From an uncultured archaeon (GTDB lineage Archaea; Asgardarchaeota; Thorarchaeia; Thorarchaeales; CAZPUN01), in the NCBI GenBank assembly GCA_964589775.1, contig CAZPUN010000034.1:1-17860 (forward strand): a DNA stretch of 17,860 nucleotides, written 5' to 3'. The notes under the pieces are model-generated. The model was not told the origin of the DNA and searched no databases. It saw only the letters and a list, made by a program, of their open reading frames with translations. The translations under genes were made by a program, and so were the position numbers. Below, one piece after another: positions 1,442 to 14,003 of this stretch (position 1 is the first letter of the stretch; every line of letters begins with the position of its first letter).

Positions 1442-1600
1442 TTATTCCATTGGTTCAAAATCTTCTTTGCTTGCACCACATACGGGGCAGACCCAATCAT
1501 CTGGGATTTCTTCGAATGGCGTTCCAGGCTCAATGCCACCATCTGGATCTCCTTCATCAGGATCGTATACCCAACCACATATCTTGCATATATATTTCAT
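1442..1600 (-). CDS. Rubredoxin (52 aa), absent from the ORF track
   Basis: Hand translation gives [52 protein letters not shown]. Two CxxCG motifs and [15 protein letters not shown] are the rubredoxin signature. SD GGTGA lies just upstream. Confidence 0.98.
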
Positions 1601-1746
1601 AAAATCACCACTCTTAATTTTGATTTTCTCATTAAAAAGTTCTTCTATTTAATTGATTTAAATAAATGTCATAAAATTAAAAATATAGTCTGTATCCATA
1701 AACTAGTTTTTTATATGTAAATATCATACATATTAATATAAATAAG

Positions 1747-3762
1747 ATGAAACCATTGGTGCGCGCTATGAATAAAAGAGCAATGCAAGAATGTGCATGT
1801 ATATTAAATGAACGGGATAAATCTTTAGTATTATCGATAATAGACAAATCGAAAACATATGTGGAATTTTTAGAATCTCTCGAAAAAGCGCTTGATAATG
1901 AGCAATTTATAAACTTGGATTCTTATCATATAGTTTCGTTTATGGTTCTGATGGCTGGTCGTAGAAGTTCTCTAATGAAATTGCTTAATAAATTAATTCC
2001 GCGTTATCCATCTTTGAAAATAGAGCTTCTATCCATGGCGTCGTATGTGCAGGAAAAAGACTTAAAATATGAAATGTGGATTGATCAAATCGAGCTTCTT
2101 ATTCGTAGACTGAAGGACAATCCTGTATCCTTAATGGTAGCAAGAGTTTTGAAAATTGTTGGGTCGATTTTGATCTGGCATAAATTTGATAAAATTGAAC
2201 AAGAACACGATATATTTGGAGTTATTGACGATCTAATGAATAAATGCGAATGTTTTTCGATTTTCAAATCAATCTTATACTCATTTTATGCTTTTGCATA
2301 TCATCAATTAGGTTCCACAGATATATCGTTAGAGATGCTGACGCAAGCCGAAAAATTACTGAGAGATTGTATAATTGAAACATCACAAGTTATGAATATG
2401 AAAGGAATTATTTTAGGCGAAATTGGTCGTGCTGAAGAGAGTATAAATGCATGCCAAGTAGCTTATAAAGCAAGGTATGAACTTGGAAATATCGTGGGAG
2501 CCGCTGCGGCATTAAACAACATGGCGATGCAATATTGGAGTATTGGCGATACTGAAAAAGCGTCTGCACAAATCATGAAAGCAATTGAAATGTTTCGGGA
2601 GTACAATTTTCCAACTGTAGTTCCAATGTTAAATCTCGCCCTGATTTATATTGGTGATGGAGATTACGAAAAAGCGTTGACAATTGCGCTTCAAGCAAAA
2701 AGTCAGGCAAAGGCATTTGGAATGAGCTATATTGGTCTTCCAATGGTTTTATCACAGGCATACATTTATCTAAAACGATTTGATGAAGCTGAAAAATATA
2801 TAGCTGAATACAAAAATATGATGGAAAAATCCAGTTCTAAAAGAGATACCTTTGCGTATCATTTCTTGGTTGGGTTGTTGGAAAAAACTCGTTTGAATCT
2901 ATATAATTCTACCAATGAATTTTTGAAGGCTATTGAAATTGCAGAAGATTTTAACATGATTTCAGAGATCATAGAGACAAAGATAAAGTTTGCTGAAACT
3001 ATGCTTCATAAGTATCTTATTGTGAAGGATATGTCATTCATACAAATTGCTGAAGCTCACATTGAGGATGCAAGATTAATCTGTGAGGAGCAAGAACTGG
3101 ACCGCCAACTGTATTATACTGTTAAATTATCTGTTTATATCGAAACCATTCTCGGTAATAAAAAGAAAGCAAAAGATATTGTAAATGAAGCAATTGCAAA
3201 GTTTGACAGTAATCCTCCATTGCAAAAGAAATTGGTTAAATTACGTGAAGAAGTTAAGAAATCAGGTTCGAAGCGTGATGTTGAATCGCTTATTCGCAGC
3301 TTTACGGACAGTGCTCAAAAATTACTTCGAATTCACATATTTAAGAGACCAAAAAAGATATCATTCAAATTATTGGGTTATATCATTATGATGAAACAGA
3401 GCGGTCTTGCAATAATTTCCAAAATATACGACCAAAAAATCTCTACAGATAGTAATCTTGTGGCCGGATTGATTTCCGCAGTAAGTACATTTCTGCAGCA
3501 AATATCTAACAATAAGAATGAGGGAAACTTAAAGTCCATTTTGCACGAGAACATATCCATTCTTATTGAAACTGATGAGCAGTTTAGCTATCTCTTACTT
3601 GTAGATCATGAAACCTATGAGGCGCGAAAGTTACTACGTAAAATTTCACAAACCTTCCGAAAGAATTATCCTGCAAATACTGATTGGGATGGAAATCTCG
3701 GAGTATTCAAGAATGCTGAAAAAGTAATAACGCCAATTGTTCAAAGTTTTATTGAGCAATAA
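1747..3762 (+). CDS. TPR-repeat protein with C-terminal longin-like domain
   Basis: TPR-like repeats (AAALNNMAMQYWSIGDTEKA, MLNLALIYIGDGDYEKAL, LSQAYIYLKRFDEAEKY). The last ~130 aa have a longin pattern (YIIMMKQSGLAIISK...LVAGLISAVSTFLQQI...LKSILHENISILIE...WDGNLGVF) typical of Asgard proteins. Confidence 0.8.
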   Translation: MKPLVRAMNKRAMQECACILNERDKSLVLSIIDKSKTYVEFLESLEKALDNEQFINLDSYHIVSFMVLMAGRRSSLMKLLNKLIPRYPSLKIELLSMASYVQEKDLKYEMWIDQIELLIRRLKDNPVSLMVARVLKIVGSILIWHKFDKIEQEHDIFGVIDDLMNKCECFSIFKSILYSFYAFAYHQLGSTDISLEMLTQAEKLLRDCIIETSQVMNMKGIILGEIGRAEESINACQVAYKARYELGNIVGAAAALNNMAMQYWSIGDTEKASAQIMKAIEMFREYNFPTVVPMLNLALIYIGDGDYEKALTIALQAKSQAKAFGMSYIGLPMVLSQAYIYLKRFDEAEKYIAEYKNMMEKSSSKRDTFAYHFLVGLLEKTRLNLYNSTNEFLKAIEIAEDFNMISEIIETKIKFAETMLHKYLIVKDMSFIQIAEAHIEDARLICEEQELDRQLYYTVKLSVYIETILGNKKKAKDIVNEAIAKFDSNPPLQKKLVKLREEVKKSGSKRDVESLIRSFTDSAQKLLRIHIFKRPKKISFKLLGYIIMMKQSGLAIISKIYDQKISTDSNLVAGLISAVSTFLQQISNNKNEGNLKSILHENISILIETDEQFSYLLLVDHETYEARKLLRKISQTFRKNYPANTDWDGNLGVFKNAEKVITPIVQSFIEQ

Positions 3763-10200: not shown

Positions 10201-10324
10201 ATTAGTGGTATGATATTCATATCTTACATTAATGTTTTCTCAAAAAACTATGTGTTGTTTGATGTTTATGTTGTTTTGATATATAATTTACGATTAAAAT
10301 TGTTAAACAATTCAAAAGAAGTTT

Positions 10325-10508
10325 GATGGGTGGAAATGTGGCGGACCTGTGGGAAAAGTAGTAATTTATTTTTTTTGTAGGGGACCTTCAAAGTTTTTGA
10401 CGAACGCACGCACGTCCGCATATTGGGAGGGATGTCAACTTTTTTTCGTGTTGACTCTTGGGAGAGGGATAACATATACCACAGGTCTTTCGCCTTTCCA
10501 TCCCGACT
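10325..10508 (-). ncRNA. Candidate structured ncRNA closed by a canonical bulge-helix-bulge (BHB) motif
   Basis: GC-enriched island in AT-rich intergenic DNA. Minus-strand arms UGGAAA-GGCG-[AAA]-GACCUGUGG and CCACAGGUC-CGCC-[ACA]-UUUCCA form a 6-bp helix, a 4-bp central helix with a 3-nt bulge 3' of it on each strand, and a 9-bp helix. It has its own TATA and a downstream T-tract. Confidence 0.75.
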
Positions 10509-10531
10509 ACACTTTCTATTCCACAAACAAA

Positions 10532-10545
10532 TATTTAAGTTTTAC
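10532..10545 (-). promoter_or_regulatory. BRE/TATA promoter for the BHB RNA
   Basis: Minus strand GTAAAACTTAAATA, with TTAAATA at 10538-10532. Standard archaeal spacing puts the start at about 10507-10510, a few nt before the outer helix. Confidence 0.55.
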
Positions 10546-10923: not shown

Positions 10924-12063
10924 ATGCCAGCAGCATTGTTATTCATTGCATGGGATAGTAAGATTGGTGCAATCTTACAGGCAAAGGTTCCGGTGGATTT
11001 TGCGGATGCCTATACTGAGGATCTAAATACTGAAATCATGAGAATTTTTACTGCTCATGCGTTAGGCGAAGCTGATGCAGGCTTTTCAAGTCTGACAGTC
11101 AAAATCGGTGGCGAAGAGTATAAAGTTGCTAGTTACTATACTGGAATTGTTCGCGAAGAAGAGCAATACTGTGTAAGCTTACTGTTGCAGGGGTCTGAAG
11201 ATCCAAAGGCCTATGAAGGCGCACTAACTTCAATTGTTCCAGGTCTTGTGAATGCTGTTGCACATATGACTGCAGATGAGTTCCAGCATGAATTGGAATT
11301 ATCATTCCGTAAAATTATAAGACTTGCTGGCATGACAGATGAATCGCGTCTTGCACGACTATTCACTGATGAGGTAGCACGTGCTGTCTGGCCTAAGCTA
11401 TGGCGTGGAGGAATATCGAAAGAAGATATGACTGAATGGCTAAAGATGGTAACGGGGCTCGCGTCGATTTCTATAGATTCTGTAATTGCTCCTTTTGAAG
11501 TTCTTGGTTTAGTAAAAGAGGAATGGGTGGATGAAGTCGGGCGAACCTGTCTCTTTCTAGTTAGTGATATTGATGTGTTAAGAGCGCCCCCATTAACCTC
11601 AATTGAAAATGCAAATACTGTTCTTGATCCTGATGAAGTTGCAGATTATAAGAAGATGACTAAGGAATTCTTAGAAGAATGGCAAAAGACTCCTGAAGAC
11701 ACTATCGCGATCGCTGAAATTTTATCAGATCCCGATACTTATGATATTTTGACCATTTTACGTGAGAGACCACATAGTTTAAGTGAAATTGAGGCAAGAG
11801 TGGATATGCCTGCAAGAGACCTAAAAGCCGCCATTCAGAAAATGCTCAAATACAGAGTTATTACTGAGATTAGAAAGCGAAATATGGGCGGCGAATATGA
11901 AAAGTGGTATCTGCTTTTAACAGATATACGAATTCGAAGGTTCTGGCCAGAATATTTCATTTCATCATTAATTCAAGAACTTGAAAAGAATCCTGAAGAT
12001 AAAAAAGCAATTCAAATGGCAAATCAGCATTTACGACTTTTGCGAGAATCATATCCCAGATAA
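10924..12063 (+). CDS. uDENN/longin-domain protein with two tandem winged-helix repeats (NPRL2-like architecture)
   Basis: N-terminal LLFIAWDSKIGAILQAKVP resembles the uDENN/NPRL2 F-[DH]-x3-G-P...P start. Internal duplication: LARLFTDEVARAVWPKL...LFLVSDIDVLRAPP vs IAEILSDPDTYDILTIL...YLLLTDIRIRRFWP. The second copy is clearly wHTH-like (PHSLSEIEARVDMPARDLKAAIQKMLKYRVI). Confidence 0.65.
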   Translation: MPAALLFIAWDSKIGAILQAKVPVDFADAYTEDLNTEIMRIFTAHALGEADAGFSSLTVKIGGEEYKVASYYTGIVREEEQYCVSLLLQGSEDPKAYEGALTSIVPGLVNAVAHMTADEFQHELELSFRKIIRLAGMTDESRLARLFTDEVARAVWPKLWRGGISKEDMTEWLKMVTGLASISIDSVIAPFEVLGLVKEEWVDEVGRTCLFLVSDIDVLRAPPLTSIENANTVLDPDEVADYKKMTKEFLEEWQKTPEDTIAIAEILSDPDTYDILTILRERPHSLSEIEARVDMPARDLKAAIQKMLKYRVITEIRKRNMGGEYEKWYLLLTDIRIRRFWPEYFISSLIQELEKNPEDKKAIQMANQHLRLLRESYPR

Positions 12064-12186
12064 ATATGTAATATTGTAATATTTCCTGGGATATTATATT
12101 TTCTTTATCCAAAGCATCATTTATATATACTATTTGAAAACTTATATATATTAGAGATTATCTAAAATTAAACCGGTGGGACTTAA

Positions 12187-13131
12187 TTGATTCATAATGT
12201 ATACGTTCTAAACAAAAAAACAGGTGAAATACTATTTCACAAGTCATTTTGGTTTACCGAAATTACAGAACGTATGTTAAAAGACGTAATCGACACGATT
12301 GACAAGCTAGAGGAATCTGAAGATAGCATAGAGACTGAATTTGGAATTGATCGTTTAGTCATACATCTACTTAATCCTCGTGATATTGAGATTGCATTTG
12401 CATATGAGACATTTGGAGATTTAGTTTTTCTTGTTTGTGGCGACCCATCGGAAAACGAAAAAGAGCTTCTTAAGAAAGCGACAAAAATTAAGGATCACTG
12501 GATCAAAACATTTGGTTTAGATAGAACTACACCTTTAAATGAAGATGAGCAAAGGGAATTCTTGGTTAAGGTAAATGAGACTGTAGTTAGCCTACTAAAA
12601 ATCGCTTTGATTGGTCCTGGTGGTGTAGGAAAAACATCTATTGTAAAACTTGTTACAACAGGCGAACCAACTTCAGAATATGTTCCCACTATGGCACCAG
12701 ATATGCGTCCTATGGGATCATTGGTTGAACAAATTATGAAAGGCAAAGAAATCAGTGAAAAATATGAATGGATTGTATTAGGCAATAAAATAATTATAGC
12801 ATGGGACCTTCCTGGTCAGGAAATGTTTAGGACGTTTTGGAAAGTGTATCTAAAAGATGCGGACGGCGTTCTATTAGTAATGAAATCAACATTACAAGGA
12901 GTAATAACTGCGAAAAAAATTTTGGATTTGATTAAGGAATATTCTCCAAACACTCCTGTATGGGCTATTGCGAACTTTCAGGACCTTCCCAATGCTTTGA
13001 AACCGGATATGATCGAGCGAATAATTGGAATTCCGACATTTCCAATGGTTGCAATTGATCCTAATAGGCGTACTGAAATGATACGAATTATACGTGCAAT
13101 TGCATTGGAAAAAGAAGCTGCATACCTATGA
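12187..13131 (+). CDS. Longin domain fused to an Arf-related small GTPase
   Basis: TTG start with SD GGTGGG. N-terminal MIHNVYVLNKKTGEILFHKSF is AP sigma/mu-type longin-like. G1 GPGGVGKTS, G2 YVPT, G3 WDLPGQ followed by Arf-like FRTFWKVY, G4 variant NFQD. Confidence 0.85.
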   Translation: MIHNVYVLNKKTGEILFHKSFWFTEITERMLKDVIDTIDKLEESEDSIETEFGIDRLVIHLLNPRDIEIAFAYETFGDLVFLVCGDPSENEKELLKKATKIKDHWIKTFGLDRTTPLNEDEQREFLVKVNETVVSLLKIALIGPGGVGKTSIVKLVTTGEPTSEYVPTMAPDMRPMGSLVEQIMKGKEISEKYEWIVLGNKIIIAWDLPGQEMFRTFWKVYLKDADGVLLVMKSTLQGVITAKKILDLIKEYSPNTPVWAIANFQDLPNALKPDMIERIIGIPTFPMVAIDPNRRTEMIRIIRAIALEKEAAYL

Positions 13132-13308
13132 TGAATCATTTTCATCTATTAATTTCATCAATGCATTATCGTTCCACAATTCTTTTTTTAACAGGTCTCT
13201 TATTGCGACTCTAATCGCTTCACTTACGTTTGGAAACACTCCATTTTTCACAAGAATTTTCAGTCCTTTTAGGTATAAATCTTCAATTTTAAGTGAAATC
13301 GTTTTCAT
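13126..13308 (-). CDS. Ribbon-helix-helix (CopG/Arc/MetJ, CdrS-like) DNA-binding protein
   Basis: MKTISLKI beta strand followed by LVKNGVFPNVSEAIRVAIRDLL, matching the G-x-F-P-N-x-SEAIR pattern of archaeal RHH proteins. SD-like GTGA upstream. Confidence 0.85.
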   Translation of the reverse strand: MKTISLKIEDLYLKGLKILVKNGVFPNVSEAIRVAIRDLLKKELWNDNALMKLIDENDSS

Positions 13309-13457
13309 GGCAAATCACTTTATTAAGGAGTTACGCTCTAATAATAAATTGAAAGAAACATTAATATGTACCTCGACTACACTAAGAGATAATATTTTAT
13401 AGGTGCTGCTCCAAATAATCATTATTATTAATGCATTAAATAATTAATGTGGTGGCA

Positions 13458-14003
13458 ATGGCTGACTCACAAAATTACGATTTTATCAGGAAGATACTCC
13501 TCTTGGGAGAAGGCGGAGTTGGAAAAACTTCTATTATTAATAGATATATTCACATGACTTTCTCAGACCAGTACTTTATGACCATTGGGGCTCAGTTTGC
13601 AGTAAGCATAGTGCATGTCAAAAAGTACGATAAGCGAGTAAAACTAAGCATTTGGGATCTTGCAGGAGAGCAGAGGTTCAACTTTGTTCAAGCATCGTAC
13701 TTTAAAGGTCTTAAAGGAAGCTTTGTTGTATTTGATGTCACTAATAAGCGCTCCTTTAAAATGGTACCAAATTGGCTTAATTCAATAAAAGAGAATAGTA
13801 CTGAAGATCCAATTATTTTTCTCGTAGGTAATAAAATAGATCTTGAAGACCGAGTTATCTCAAGAGAGGAAGCCGAAGCCTTCGCGAAAGAGCATAATTT
13901 GGAATATTATGAAACAAGTGCGAAAGAAGGTATTGGAATAAACGAAATTTTTGAAAATATGGCTGCCAAATTAGTTGAAAAATGGATGAATGAATCCATG
14001 TAA
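13458..14003 (+). CDS. Rab-like small GTPase without a C-terminal prenylation motif
   Basis: G1 GEGGVGKTS, G2/RabF1 TIGAQF, RabF2/G3 KLSIWDLAGEQRF, RabF4 SYFKG, RabF5 VVFDVT, G4 GNKID, G5 ETSAK. No cysteine at the C-terminus. ATG 13458 follows SD GGTGG. Confidence 0.93.
   Translation: MADSQNYDFIRKILLLGEGGVGKTSIINRYIHMTFSDQYFMTIGAQFAVSIVHVKKYDKRVKLSIWDLAGEQRFNFVQASYFKGLKGSFVVFDVTNKRSFKMVPNWLNSIKENSTEDPIIFLVGNKIDLEDRVISREEAEAFAKEHNLEYYETSAKEGIGINEIFENMAAKLVEKWMNESM

Follow-up and report, generated by a model that had tools for sequence, protein, structure and literature searches.

We identified a stand-alone gene for a 151-nt circular RNA in an Asgard archaeon. The ring is real, conserved and expressed and is of an uncatalogued family; its route of synthesis is known and the RNA itself is new. 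The gene lies in a 17,860-nt stretch of DNA, here called the window, from the genome of a basal member of Thorarchaeia. This host is the only member of its family among the genomes compared, and the family is sister to Thorarchaeaceae, a family of 16 genera. The element occurs once in the genome, in the intergenic space that follows the end of one plus-strand gene (10176) and precedes the start of another (10924). Its parts and the divergent neighbour gene are as follows.

10532–10545, minus strand: BRE-like purine run and TATA box, the putative promoter of the RNA gene, as judged from sequence.
10489–10512, minus strand: 5′ leader or exon of about 22–24 nt, with its likely start at 10510–10512.
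10479–10500, minus strand: 5′ arm of the bulge-helix-bulge (BHB) motif, with outer helix (10500–10495), central helix (10494–10491), bulge (10490–10488) and inner helix (10487–10479).
10338–10488, minus strand: 151-nt circular RNA, the excised product; RNA run X8 has its back-splice junction, the DNA runs X2 and X5 are linear there, and the sister species is 98% identical.
10331–10352, minus strand: 3′ arm of the BHB, with inner helix (10352–10344), central helix (10343–10340), bulge (10339–10337) and outer helix (10336–10331).
10313–10337, minus strand: 3′ exon or trailer of 16–25 nt, ending in a U-tract terminator (10320–10314).
10924–12063, plus strand: divergent neighbour gene encoding a 379-aa protein with a C-terminal winged helix, the synteny anchor for the RNA across Thorarchaeales.

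The two arms form a perfect BHB on the minus strand around 10488–10338, with a 6-3-4-3-9 bp pattern. The preliminary description had claimed that the three helices pair perfectly with exactly 3 nt left on each arm, that the bulge geometry is canonical on the minus strand, and that this strand carries a TATA box and a UUCUUUU tract; each of these points stands. Read on the minus strand, the bulges AAA (10490–10488) and ACA (10339–10337) are placed 3′ of the 4-bp helix. The BHB is present in the minimum-energy fold of that strand (z = -4.6, with none of 200 shuffles as stable), where it closes a four-way multiloop. The TATA box (10539–10532) and the U-tract are both kept in the sister species. 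The element therefore has the features of a BHB splicing substrate, namely the 4-bp helix, two 3-nt bulges 3′ of it and flanking helices.

We scanned the 2.16-Mb genome for all 3-4-3 motifs and this BHB ranked second, after a tRNA T-loop intron. Five block-shuffled genomes served as the control for BHB frequency; together they yielded a single motif whose pairing score was as high, and A-rich bulges were missing even from motifs that scored far lower. The scan also returned other motifs in this genome. The third-best genome-wide, on contig C30 (607, minus strand, 144 nt), is a perfect BHB with AAA bulges. The third base of its 3′ bulge opens the ATG of a downstream frame, and it may be a 5′UTR intron or a second stand-alone circle. 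A further BHB on C30 (5995, minus strand, 217 nt) has similar arms, AAA bulges and an A-rich, repetitive intergenic loop. T-loop tRNA introns with canonical BHBs were found at C13:50210, C21:51797 and C17:13916, and it is because of these introns that the ARAGORN anticodon calls for the tRNAs were misled.

The archaeal BHB route consists of EndA cleavage and RtcB ligation (PMC4731332, PMC7714728), and both enzymes are encoded in the genome (two PF01974 matches and one PF01139 match). We infer that transcription from the TATA promoter would give a precursor of about 200 nt ending at the U-tract, the ends of which would fold to the canonical BHB. From established archaeal splicing, EndA would cut after the second nucleotide of each bulge. 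RtcB would then join the inner ends to give the 151-nt circle, a joined product that is present in one RNA contig. We regard biogenesis by this route as highly probable.

That 10488–10338 is excised and circularised had been predicted from the DNA alone, and public sequencing data agree with it. Ten public runs contain part of the region and one of them, metatranscriptome X8, is RNA; runs X3–X10, which hold small word shares, were left out as habitat evidence. The sole RNA contig in 9900–11000 is 178 nt long at a depth of 5.3, and covers 10337–10488 and nothing outside. Its loose ends match window positions 10471–10487 in front and 10338–10345 behind. Since these ends repeat the opposite ends of the circle, the contig goes round the ring and spans the joint two times. 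Read on the minus strand, the joint is CGCCAC/AGACCUG, as predicted, which places it after the second bulge nucleotides; with an A as the last base of both bulges, its position is ambiguous by 1 nt. The genome does not contain the joined word, and DNA contigs from runs X2 and X5 continue linearly across both splice sites. This junction evidence consists of one low-depth contig from one study and an MDA-amplified library, and the RNA is that of the sister species, variants of the contig matching the sister-species loci L192/L193. Of the two junctions proposed earlier as a check, the circle junction was found in X8 and the ligated exon-exon junction was not found in the contigs of that run. The outcomes that the preliminary description had named as damaging, such as a missing junction, dispersed copies or an Rfam match, did not occur; the strand of transcription is unreadable from the RNA contigs.

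Comparison with three sister-species contigs indicates which part of the transcript is maintained. Identity is 98% in the circle, 95.5% in the 5′ exon and 82.5% in the promoter, compared to 77–82% in the flanking genes, 43–68% in the spacers and 56% in the 3′ exon. The BRE/TATA region is invariant across these contigs and the spacer farther upstream diverges. The 3′ exon is shortened, rewritten and runs straight into the U-tract. The outermost U-A pair of the outer helix becomes U-G with the helix retained, and five of five differences in the RNA-run variant fall at unpaired positions. Between the splice sites, the insert is 151–152 nt in both the sister contigs and the RNA. Thus, with a circle 98% identical beside genes at 77–82% and a rewritten 3′ exon, the circle itself is indicated as the product, as had been proposed; the confinement of RNA cover to the circle also supports this. 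Its status as the functional product is shown indirectly, by conservation.

We compared the element to known RNA classes. The earlier remark that no tRNA, rRNA or SRP hallmark is visible was upheld: Rfam gave no match at the element, in scans of the linear sequence of the window and of 20 loci of relatives, ARAGORN made no call, and the SRP motif is absent. A tRNA intron, or a permuted or split tRNA, was rejected on the missing ARAGORN call, the 47-nt hairpin formed by the ligated exons and the unconserved 3′ exon. Permuted SRP RNA was rejected on the absence of the helix 8 SRP54 motif and the presence of a normal SRP gene at C13:49681, and permuted 5S rRNA on a full-length 5S at C13:58354 with no other RF00001 match to E 10. 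A pre-rRNA processing stem is at odds with the location of the 16S and 23S genes, on contig C23, and with the constant insert in the sister contigs and RNA. Neither box C (RUGAUGA) nor box D (CUGA) is present, which removes box C/D sRNAs. For box H/ACA, ACA triplets are present, rRNA complementarity is not above chance, there is no Rfam match, and a kink-turn is absent as judged by eye only. A cobalamin riboswitch was set aside on the lack of an Rfam match and a position that is not that of a 5′ leader of a regulated operon; a MITE or omega RNA on the single copy and the lack of transposase or TnpB among the neighbour genes examined; a Y RNA on the lack of a PF05731 (Ro60/TROVE) match in a genome that is 96.8% complete; and a replication origin (ORB) on the lack of a skew inflection or cdc6 neighbour and on the existence of the RNA junction.

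Next to the sister species, relatives were found by position. The BLASTN comparison with related genomes that had been suggested gave no match for the element among 60 genomes of the same order, and the single copy leaves no dispersed MITE copies. An exact 20-mer search returned four unrelated chance matches from metagenome contigs and none from viral contigs. In six of the 16 Thorarchaeaceae genera only (26–27 of 86 genomes), a single-copy RNA of 107–170 nt, RNA1, matches the ring gene in position and orientation with respect to the neighbour gene, with a tmk-like gene between. Its closing stem covaries, with two-sided changes in 11 of 25 pairs against 0 of 500 shuffles and 0–3 in slid controls. 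A full BHB is seen in 10 of the 18 RNA1 copies examined, with 5–15 outer pairs; these copies come from three genera and differ in their outer-helix sequences. The remaining copies, from two genera plus one further copy, lack most of the outer helix (0–3 outer pairs) and keep the 4-bp helix and the 3-nt first bulge. Three motifs are colinear in RNA1 and the circle, and this pattern, chosen after both had been seen, occurs in the host genome at this element only. A search with nhmmer and a Thorarchaeaceae-only HMM gave no match to the circle, and a Thorarchaeaceae-only covariance model scored 8.1 bits (E 1.3) over the motif region, which is not significant. Given the same position and strand, the BHB closure and the three colinear motifs, the ring is probably homologous to RNA1.

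Thorarchaeaceae have a second RNA downstream of the same neighbour gene, in 21 of the 23 loci examined.

RNA2: loci L006, L008–L015, L017, L020–L022, L024–L026, L028, L029 and L031–L034, within 500 nt after the anchor gene, for example L014:2760–3047, plus strand.

RNA2, nearly universal in the family, is a structured RNA with a separate promoter and a 3′ hairpin. A long stem closes it, with no consistent BHB, and GGUCCC is repeated, often in hairpin loops. It has an exact 12-mer in common with RNA1 and is a related, linear RNA. No Rfam match was found for RNA2 in the scanned loci, and the RNA2 HMM found nothing in the host genome.

Two RNA1 copies show rearrangements. The copy at L026:3627–3824 (+, the same as L048) holds a 32-nt nested insert with its own BHB inside the circle. 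Removing this insert restores the sequence of close kin, so by comparison of sequences a small RNA other than a tRNA has gained a tRNA-type intron. The copy at L056 (around 1498–1750, minus strand) has its 5′ half replaced by an opposite-strand frame that is transposase-like by eye, and reads like a copy broken by an insertion sequence. A joint model run over 151 Asgard genomes gave matches in Thorarchaeales only, and 20 loci from other Asgard families that surround a homologue of the neighbour gene yielded no such RNA. One match carries the label Hermodarchaeota (MAG contig L161), but it is near-identical to Thorarchaeaceae copies, with RNA1 and anchor gene like those of genus g13, and the label is probably a naming error.

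The evidence for a circle that is itself the product has to be weighed against other origins. The RNA could be linear and the junction contig an artefact, made by MDA chimerism or by a reverse transcriptase that switched template across the terminal stem; there is a single contig, from an MDA library, and the stem brings the RNA ends close in space. However, the joint coincides exactly with the predicted EndA sites, where the two sides have just 1 nt in common, it occurs at both contig ends, the exon sequence is uncovered and the genome lacks the joined word; we consider such an artefact very improbable. The circle might instead be a by-product, with the short ligated exon RNA as the product or the whole a selfish BHB intron or MITE-like repeat. 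The conservation of the 5′ exon, whose G-rich motif is retained in relatives, and the patchy distribution of RNA1 would fit, yet the element is single-copy at a fixed syntenic position, RNA cover is limited to the circle, and between sister species it is the 3′ exon that changes and the circle that does not, all of which makes a by-product decidedly unlikely. About equally improbable is a housekeeping RNA, circularly permuted or much diverged, that circularisation would restore as it does the Thermoproteus SRP RNA. The gene layout is that of the permuted SRP gene (PMC4731332), and in one relative the circle has acquired a nested BHB intron, as happens in stable Asgard RNAs. Against this, the linear sequence has no partial Rfam match and the element was not found outside Thorarchaeia in the genomes searched. 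Ordinary full-length SRP, RNase P, 5S, 16S and 23S genes are found elsewhere in the host genome, and therefore the element is no permuted stand-in for these.

The predicted circular fold of the 151-nt product contains the following features within the multiloop.

10459–10470, minus strand: C-rich single-stranded motif 1 (AUCCC...UCCCA), predicted unpaired.
10434–10455, minus strand: hairpin A, 6 bp with an A-rich loop.
10424–10433, minus strand: C-rich single-stranded motif 2 in the predicted fold, common to Thorarchaeaceae RNA1.
10400–10419, minus strand: hairpin B, 8 bp, the 3′ arm of which is the shared GCGUUCGU motif.
10374–10392, minus strand: weak hairpin C, containing the family motif GGUCCCCU (10386–10379).

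Sister-species changes within hairpin A are located in the loop, and hairpin B depends on G-U pairs available on the minus strand only. Long unpaired linkers of the four-way multiloop would expose three C-rich motifs, two AUCCC and one GGUCCCC, the last of which is just half unpaired in predicted folds. The element is the sole non-coding cluster of these motifs in the host genome. Conservation is seen in short C-rich motifs that recur along one molecule, in its loops and linkers. Rolling-circle translation of the ring would meet stops in every round.

CsrB/RsmZ-type bacterial RNAs are stand-alone small RNAs that titrate a protein through a short motif recurring in their loops and single-stranded linkers. 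A multivalent protein-binding RNA fits the ring best because one exposed motif is repeated. We propose that the C-rich motifs would act as repeated sites for one RNA-binding protein, with the ring serving as an exonuclease-proof sponge or scaffold in the CsrB manner. However, the Asgard motif is C-rich and not GGA, and the RNA is circular; the analogy is functional only. KH proteins, which are universal, are encoded in the host genome. Besides supplying the 5′ strand of the outer and central helices, the 5′ leader contains a GGGA stretch that can base-pair with the circle's GUCCCC. The leader-circle duplex has -11.4 kcal/mol (p about 0.05 versus shuffled leaders), and pairing reaches p <= 0.05 in 11 of 19 sequences. 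Pairing of a G-rich leader that is removed by splicing suggests a mask on the precursor, in which GGGA/GGGGAC would cover the site until the leader is spliced away. A stable ring that displays C-rich single-stranded motifs to a protein is a tentative assignment, somewhat short of an even chance, and the whole explanation, biogenesis and protein-binding role together, is offered just as tentatively.

Other functions are compatible with the same biogenesis. As an antisense or guide RNA, the ring would use its C-rich loops to pair with G-rich targets such as ribosome-binding sites, a stable RNA or its own ligated exons. Its motifs are conserved in sequence and not in pairing, the leader pairs with GUCCCC, and CCUCC is the anti-Shine-Dalgarno core at the 3′ end of the host 16S. 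However, complementarity to 16S, 23S, 5S, SRP and RNase P RNA is not beyond that of shuffled circles, near-matches to the invariant 12-mer in five genomes are in unrelated genes with no common target, and C/D boxes are absent; we judge an antisense role unlikely. Less likely still, the RNA would sense a ligand or have a regulatory role connected with the neighbouring cobalamin-type ECF/DUF4430 uptake operon. Thorarchaeaceae RNA1 is found just upstream of this operon on the same strand, and the window has the palindromic operator of the operon before an ECF S-component gene, also on the same strand, with the 11-nt operator core recurring within the circle. But the operon comes with a TATA and operator of its own, even in genomes without RNA1, and in the window 9 kb separate the RNA from the ECF gene, with a convergent gene facing the end of the RNA. 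Moreover, Rfam gave no cobalamin riboswitch match, and an excised circle cannot act in cis. Binding of a protein remains our preferred role for the ring.

The cbf5 mRNA intron is another BHB circle outside tRNA and rRNA, and it interrupts an mRNA. Published BHB circles in the cited literature are tRNA introns, pre-rRNA, one permuted SRP RNA and one 5′UTR intron (PMC4731332, PMC7714728, PMC12558985). The permuted SRP RNA of Thermoproteus tenax and T. uzoniensis (Plagens et al. 2015, PMC4731332) resembles the Asgard gene in its own TATA promoter, a leader of about 23 nt, a leader and trailer that pair into a BHB, the EndA/RtcB route and a circle that is the product. However, the Thermoproteus circle restores a known RNA (PMC4731332), whereas the Asgard ring has no SRP features and its host has a normal SRP gene. 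BHB introns of tRNAs, including the C/D guide intron of tRNA-Trp, are likewise excised and circularised, and the intron circle can be functional (PMC7714728, PMC12558985). The Asgard ring differs in having no tRNA host and exons of about 22 and 16–25 nt that are not tRNA-like, and it lacks the C or D boxes of the tRNA-Trp intron. The Haloferax HVO_1309 5′UTR intron (Schwarz et al. 2020, PMC7714728) is also a BHB circle outside tRNA and rRNA, but it interrupts an mRNA; in the Asgard gene no ORF follows, the transcript ends at the U-tract and the circle is the conserved part. Our literature search, with subscription journals outside its scope, found no description of the Asgard ring RNA. Together with the lack of an Rfam family, this supports the earlier suggestion of an undescribed archaeal circRNA gene.

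The ring RNA lies in the archaeal group closest to eukaryotes. It may be the first member of a class in which Asgard genes serve to make a small regulatory ring other than a permuted housekeeping RNA. Made by tRNA splicing, such a ring would be a sponge or scaffold that offers C-rich sites to a protein, would be switched on when its masking leader is removed, and would have a linear paralogue in Thorarchaeaceae; this generalisation is slightly more speculative than the protein-binding role alone. If true, the tRNA-splicing machinery makes purpose-built circular RNAs, and a natural circular and linear pair of related RNAs would be available for comparison. More such genes can be sought by a simple search for an intergenic BHB together with back-splice contigs.

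Finally, we noted other features of the window. At 10924–14003 it encodes the winged-helix-tailed protein, whose relatives are named Thorarchaeota and have 62–69% identity, an Arf/Roc-like GTPase extended at its N-terminus, and a GTPase of the Ras family; in the sister contigs a 57-aa ribbon-helix-helix gene sits between the two GTPase genes. The palindromic operator that precedes the ECF S-component gene is located at 1273–1289, with the same palindrome found before the DUF4430/ECF operon in Thorarchaeaceae, and its 11-nt core recurs at about 10467–10477. On the minus strand at 1442–1600, a 52-aa ORF with two CxxC motifs, too short for the ORF length threshold applied, encodes what we take to be a rubredoxin-like protein.
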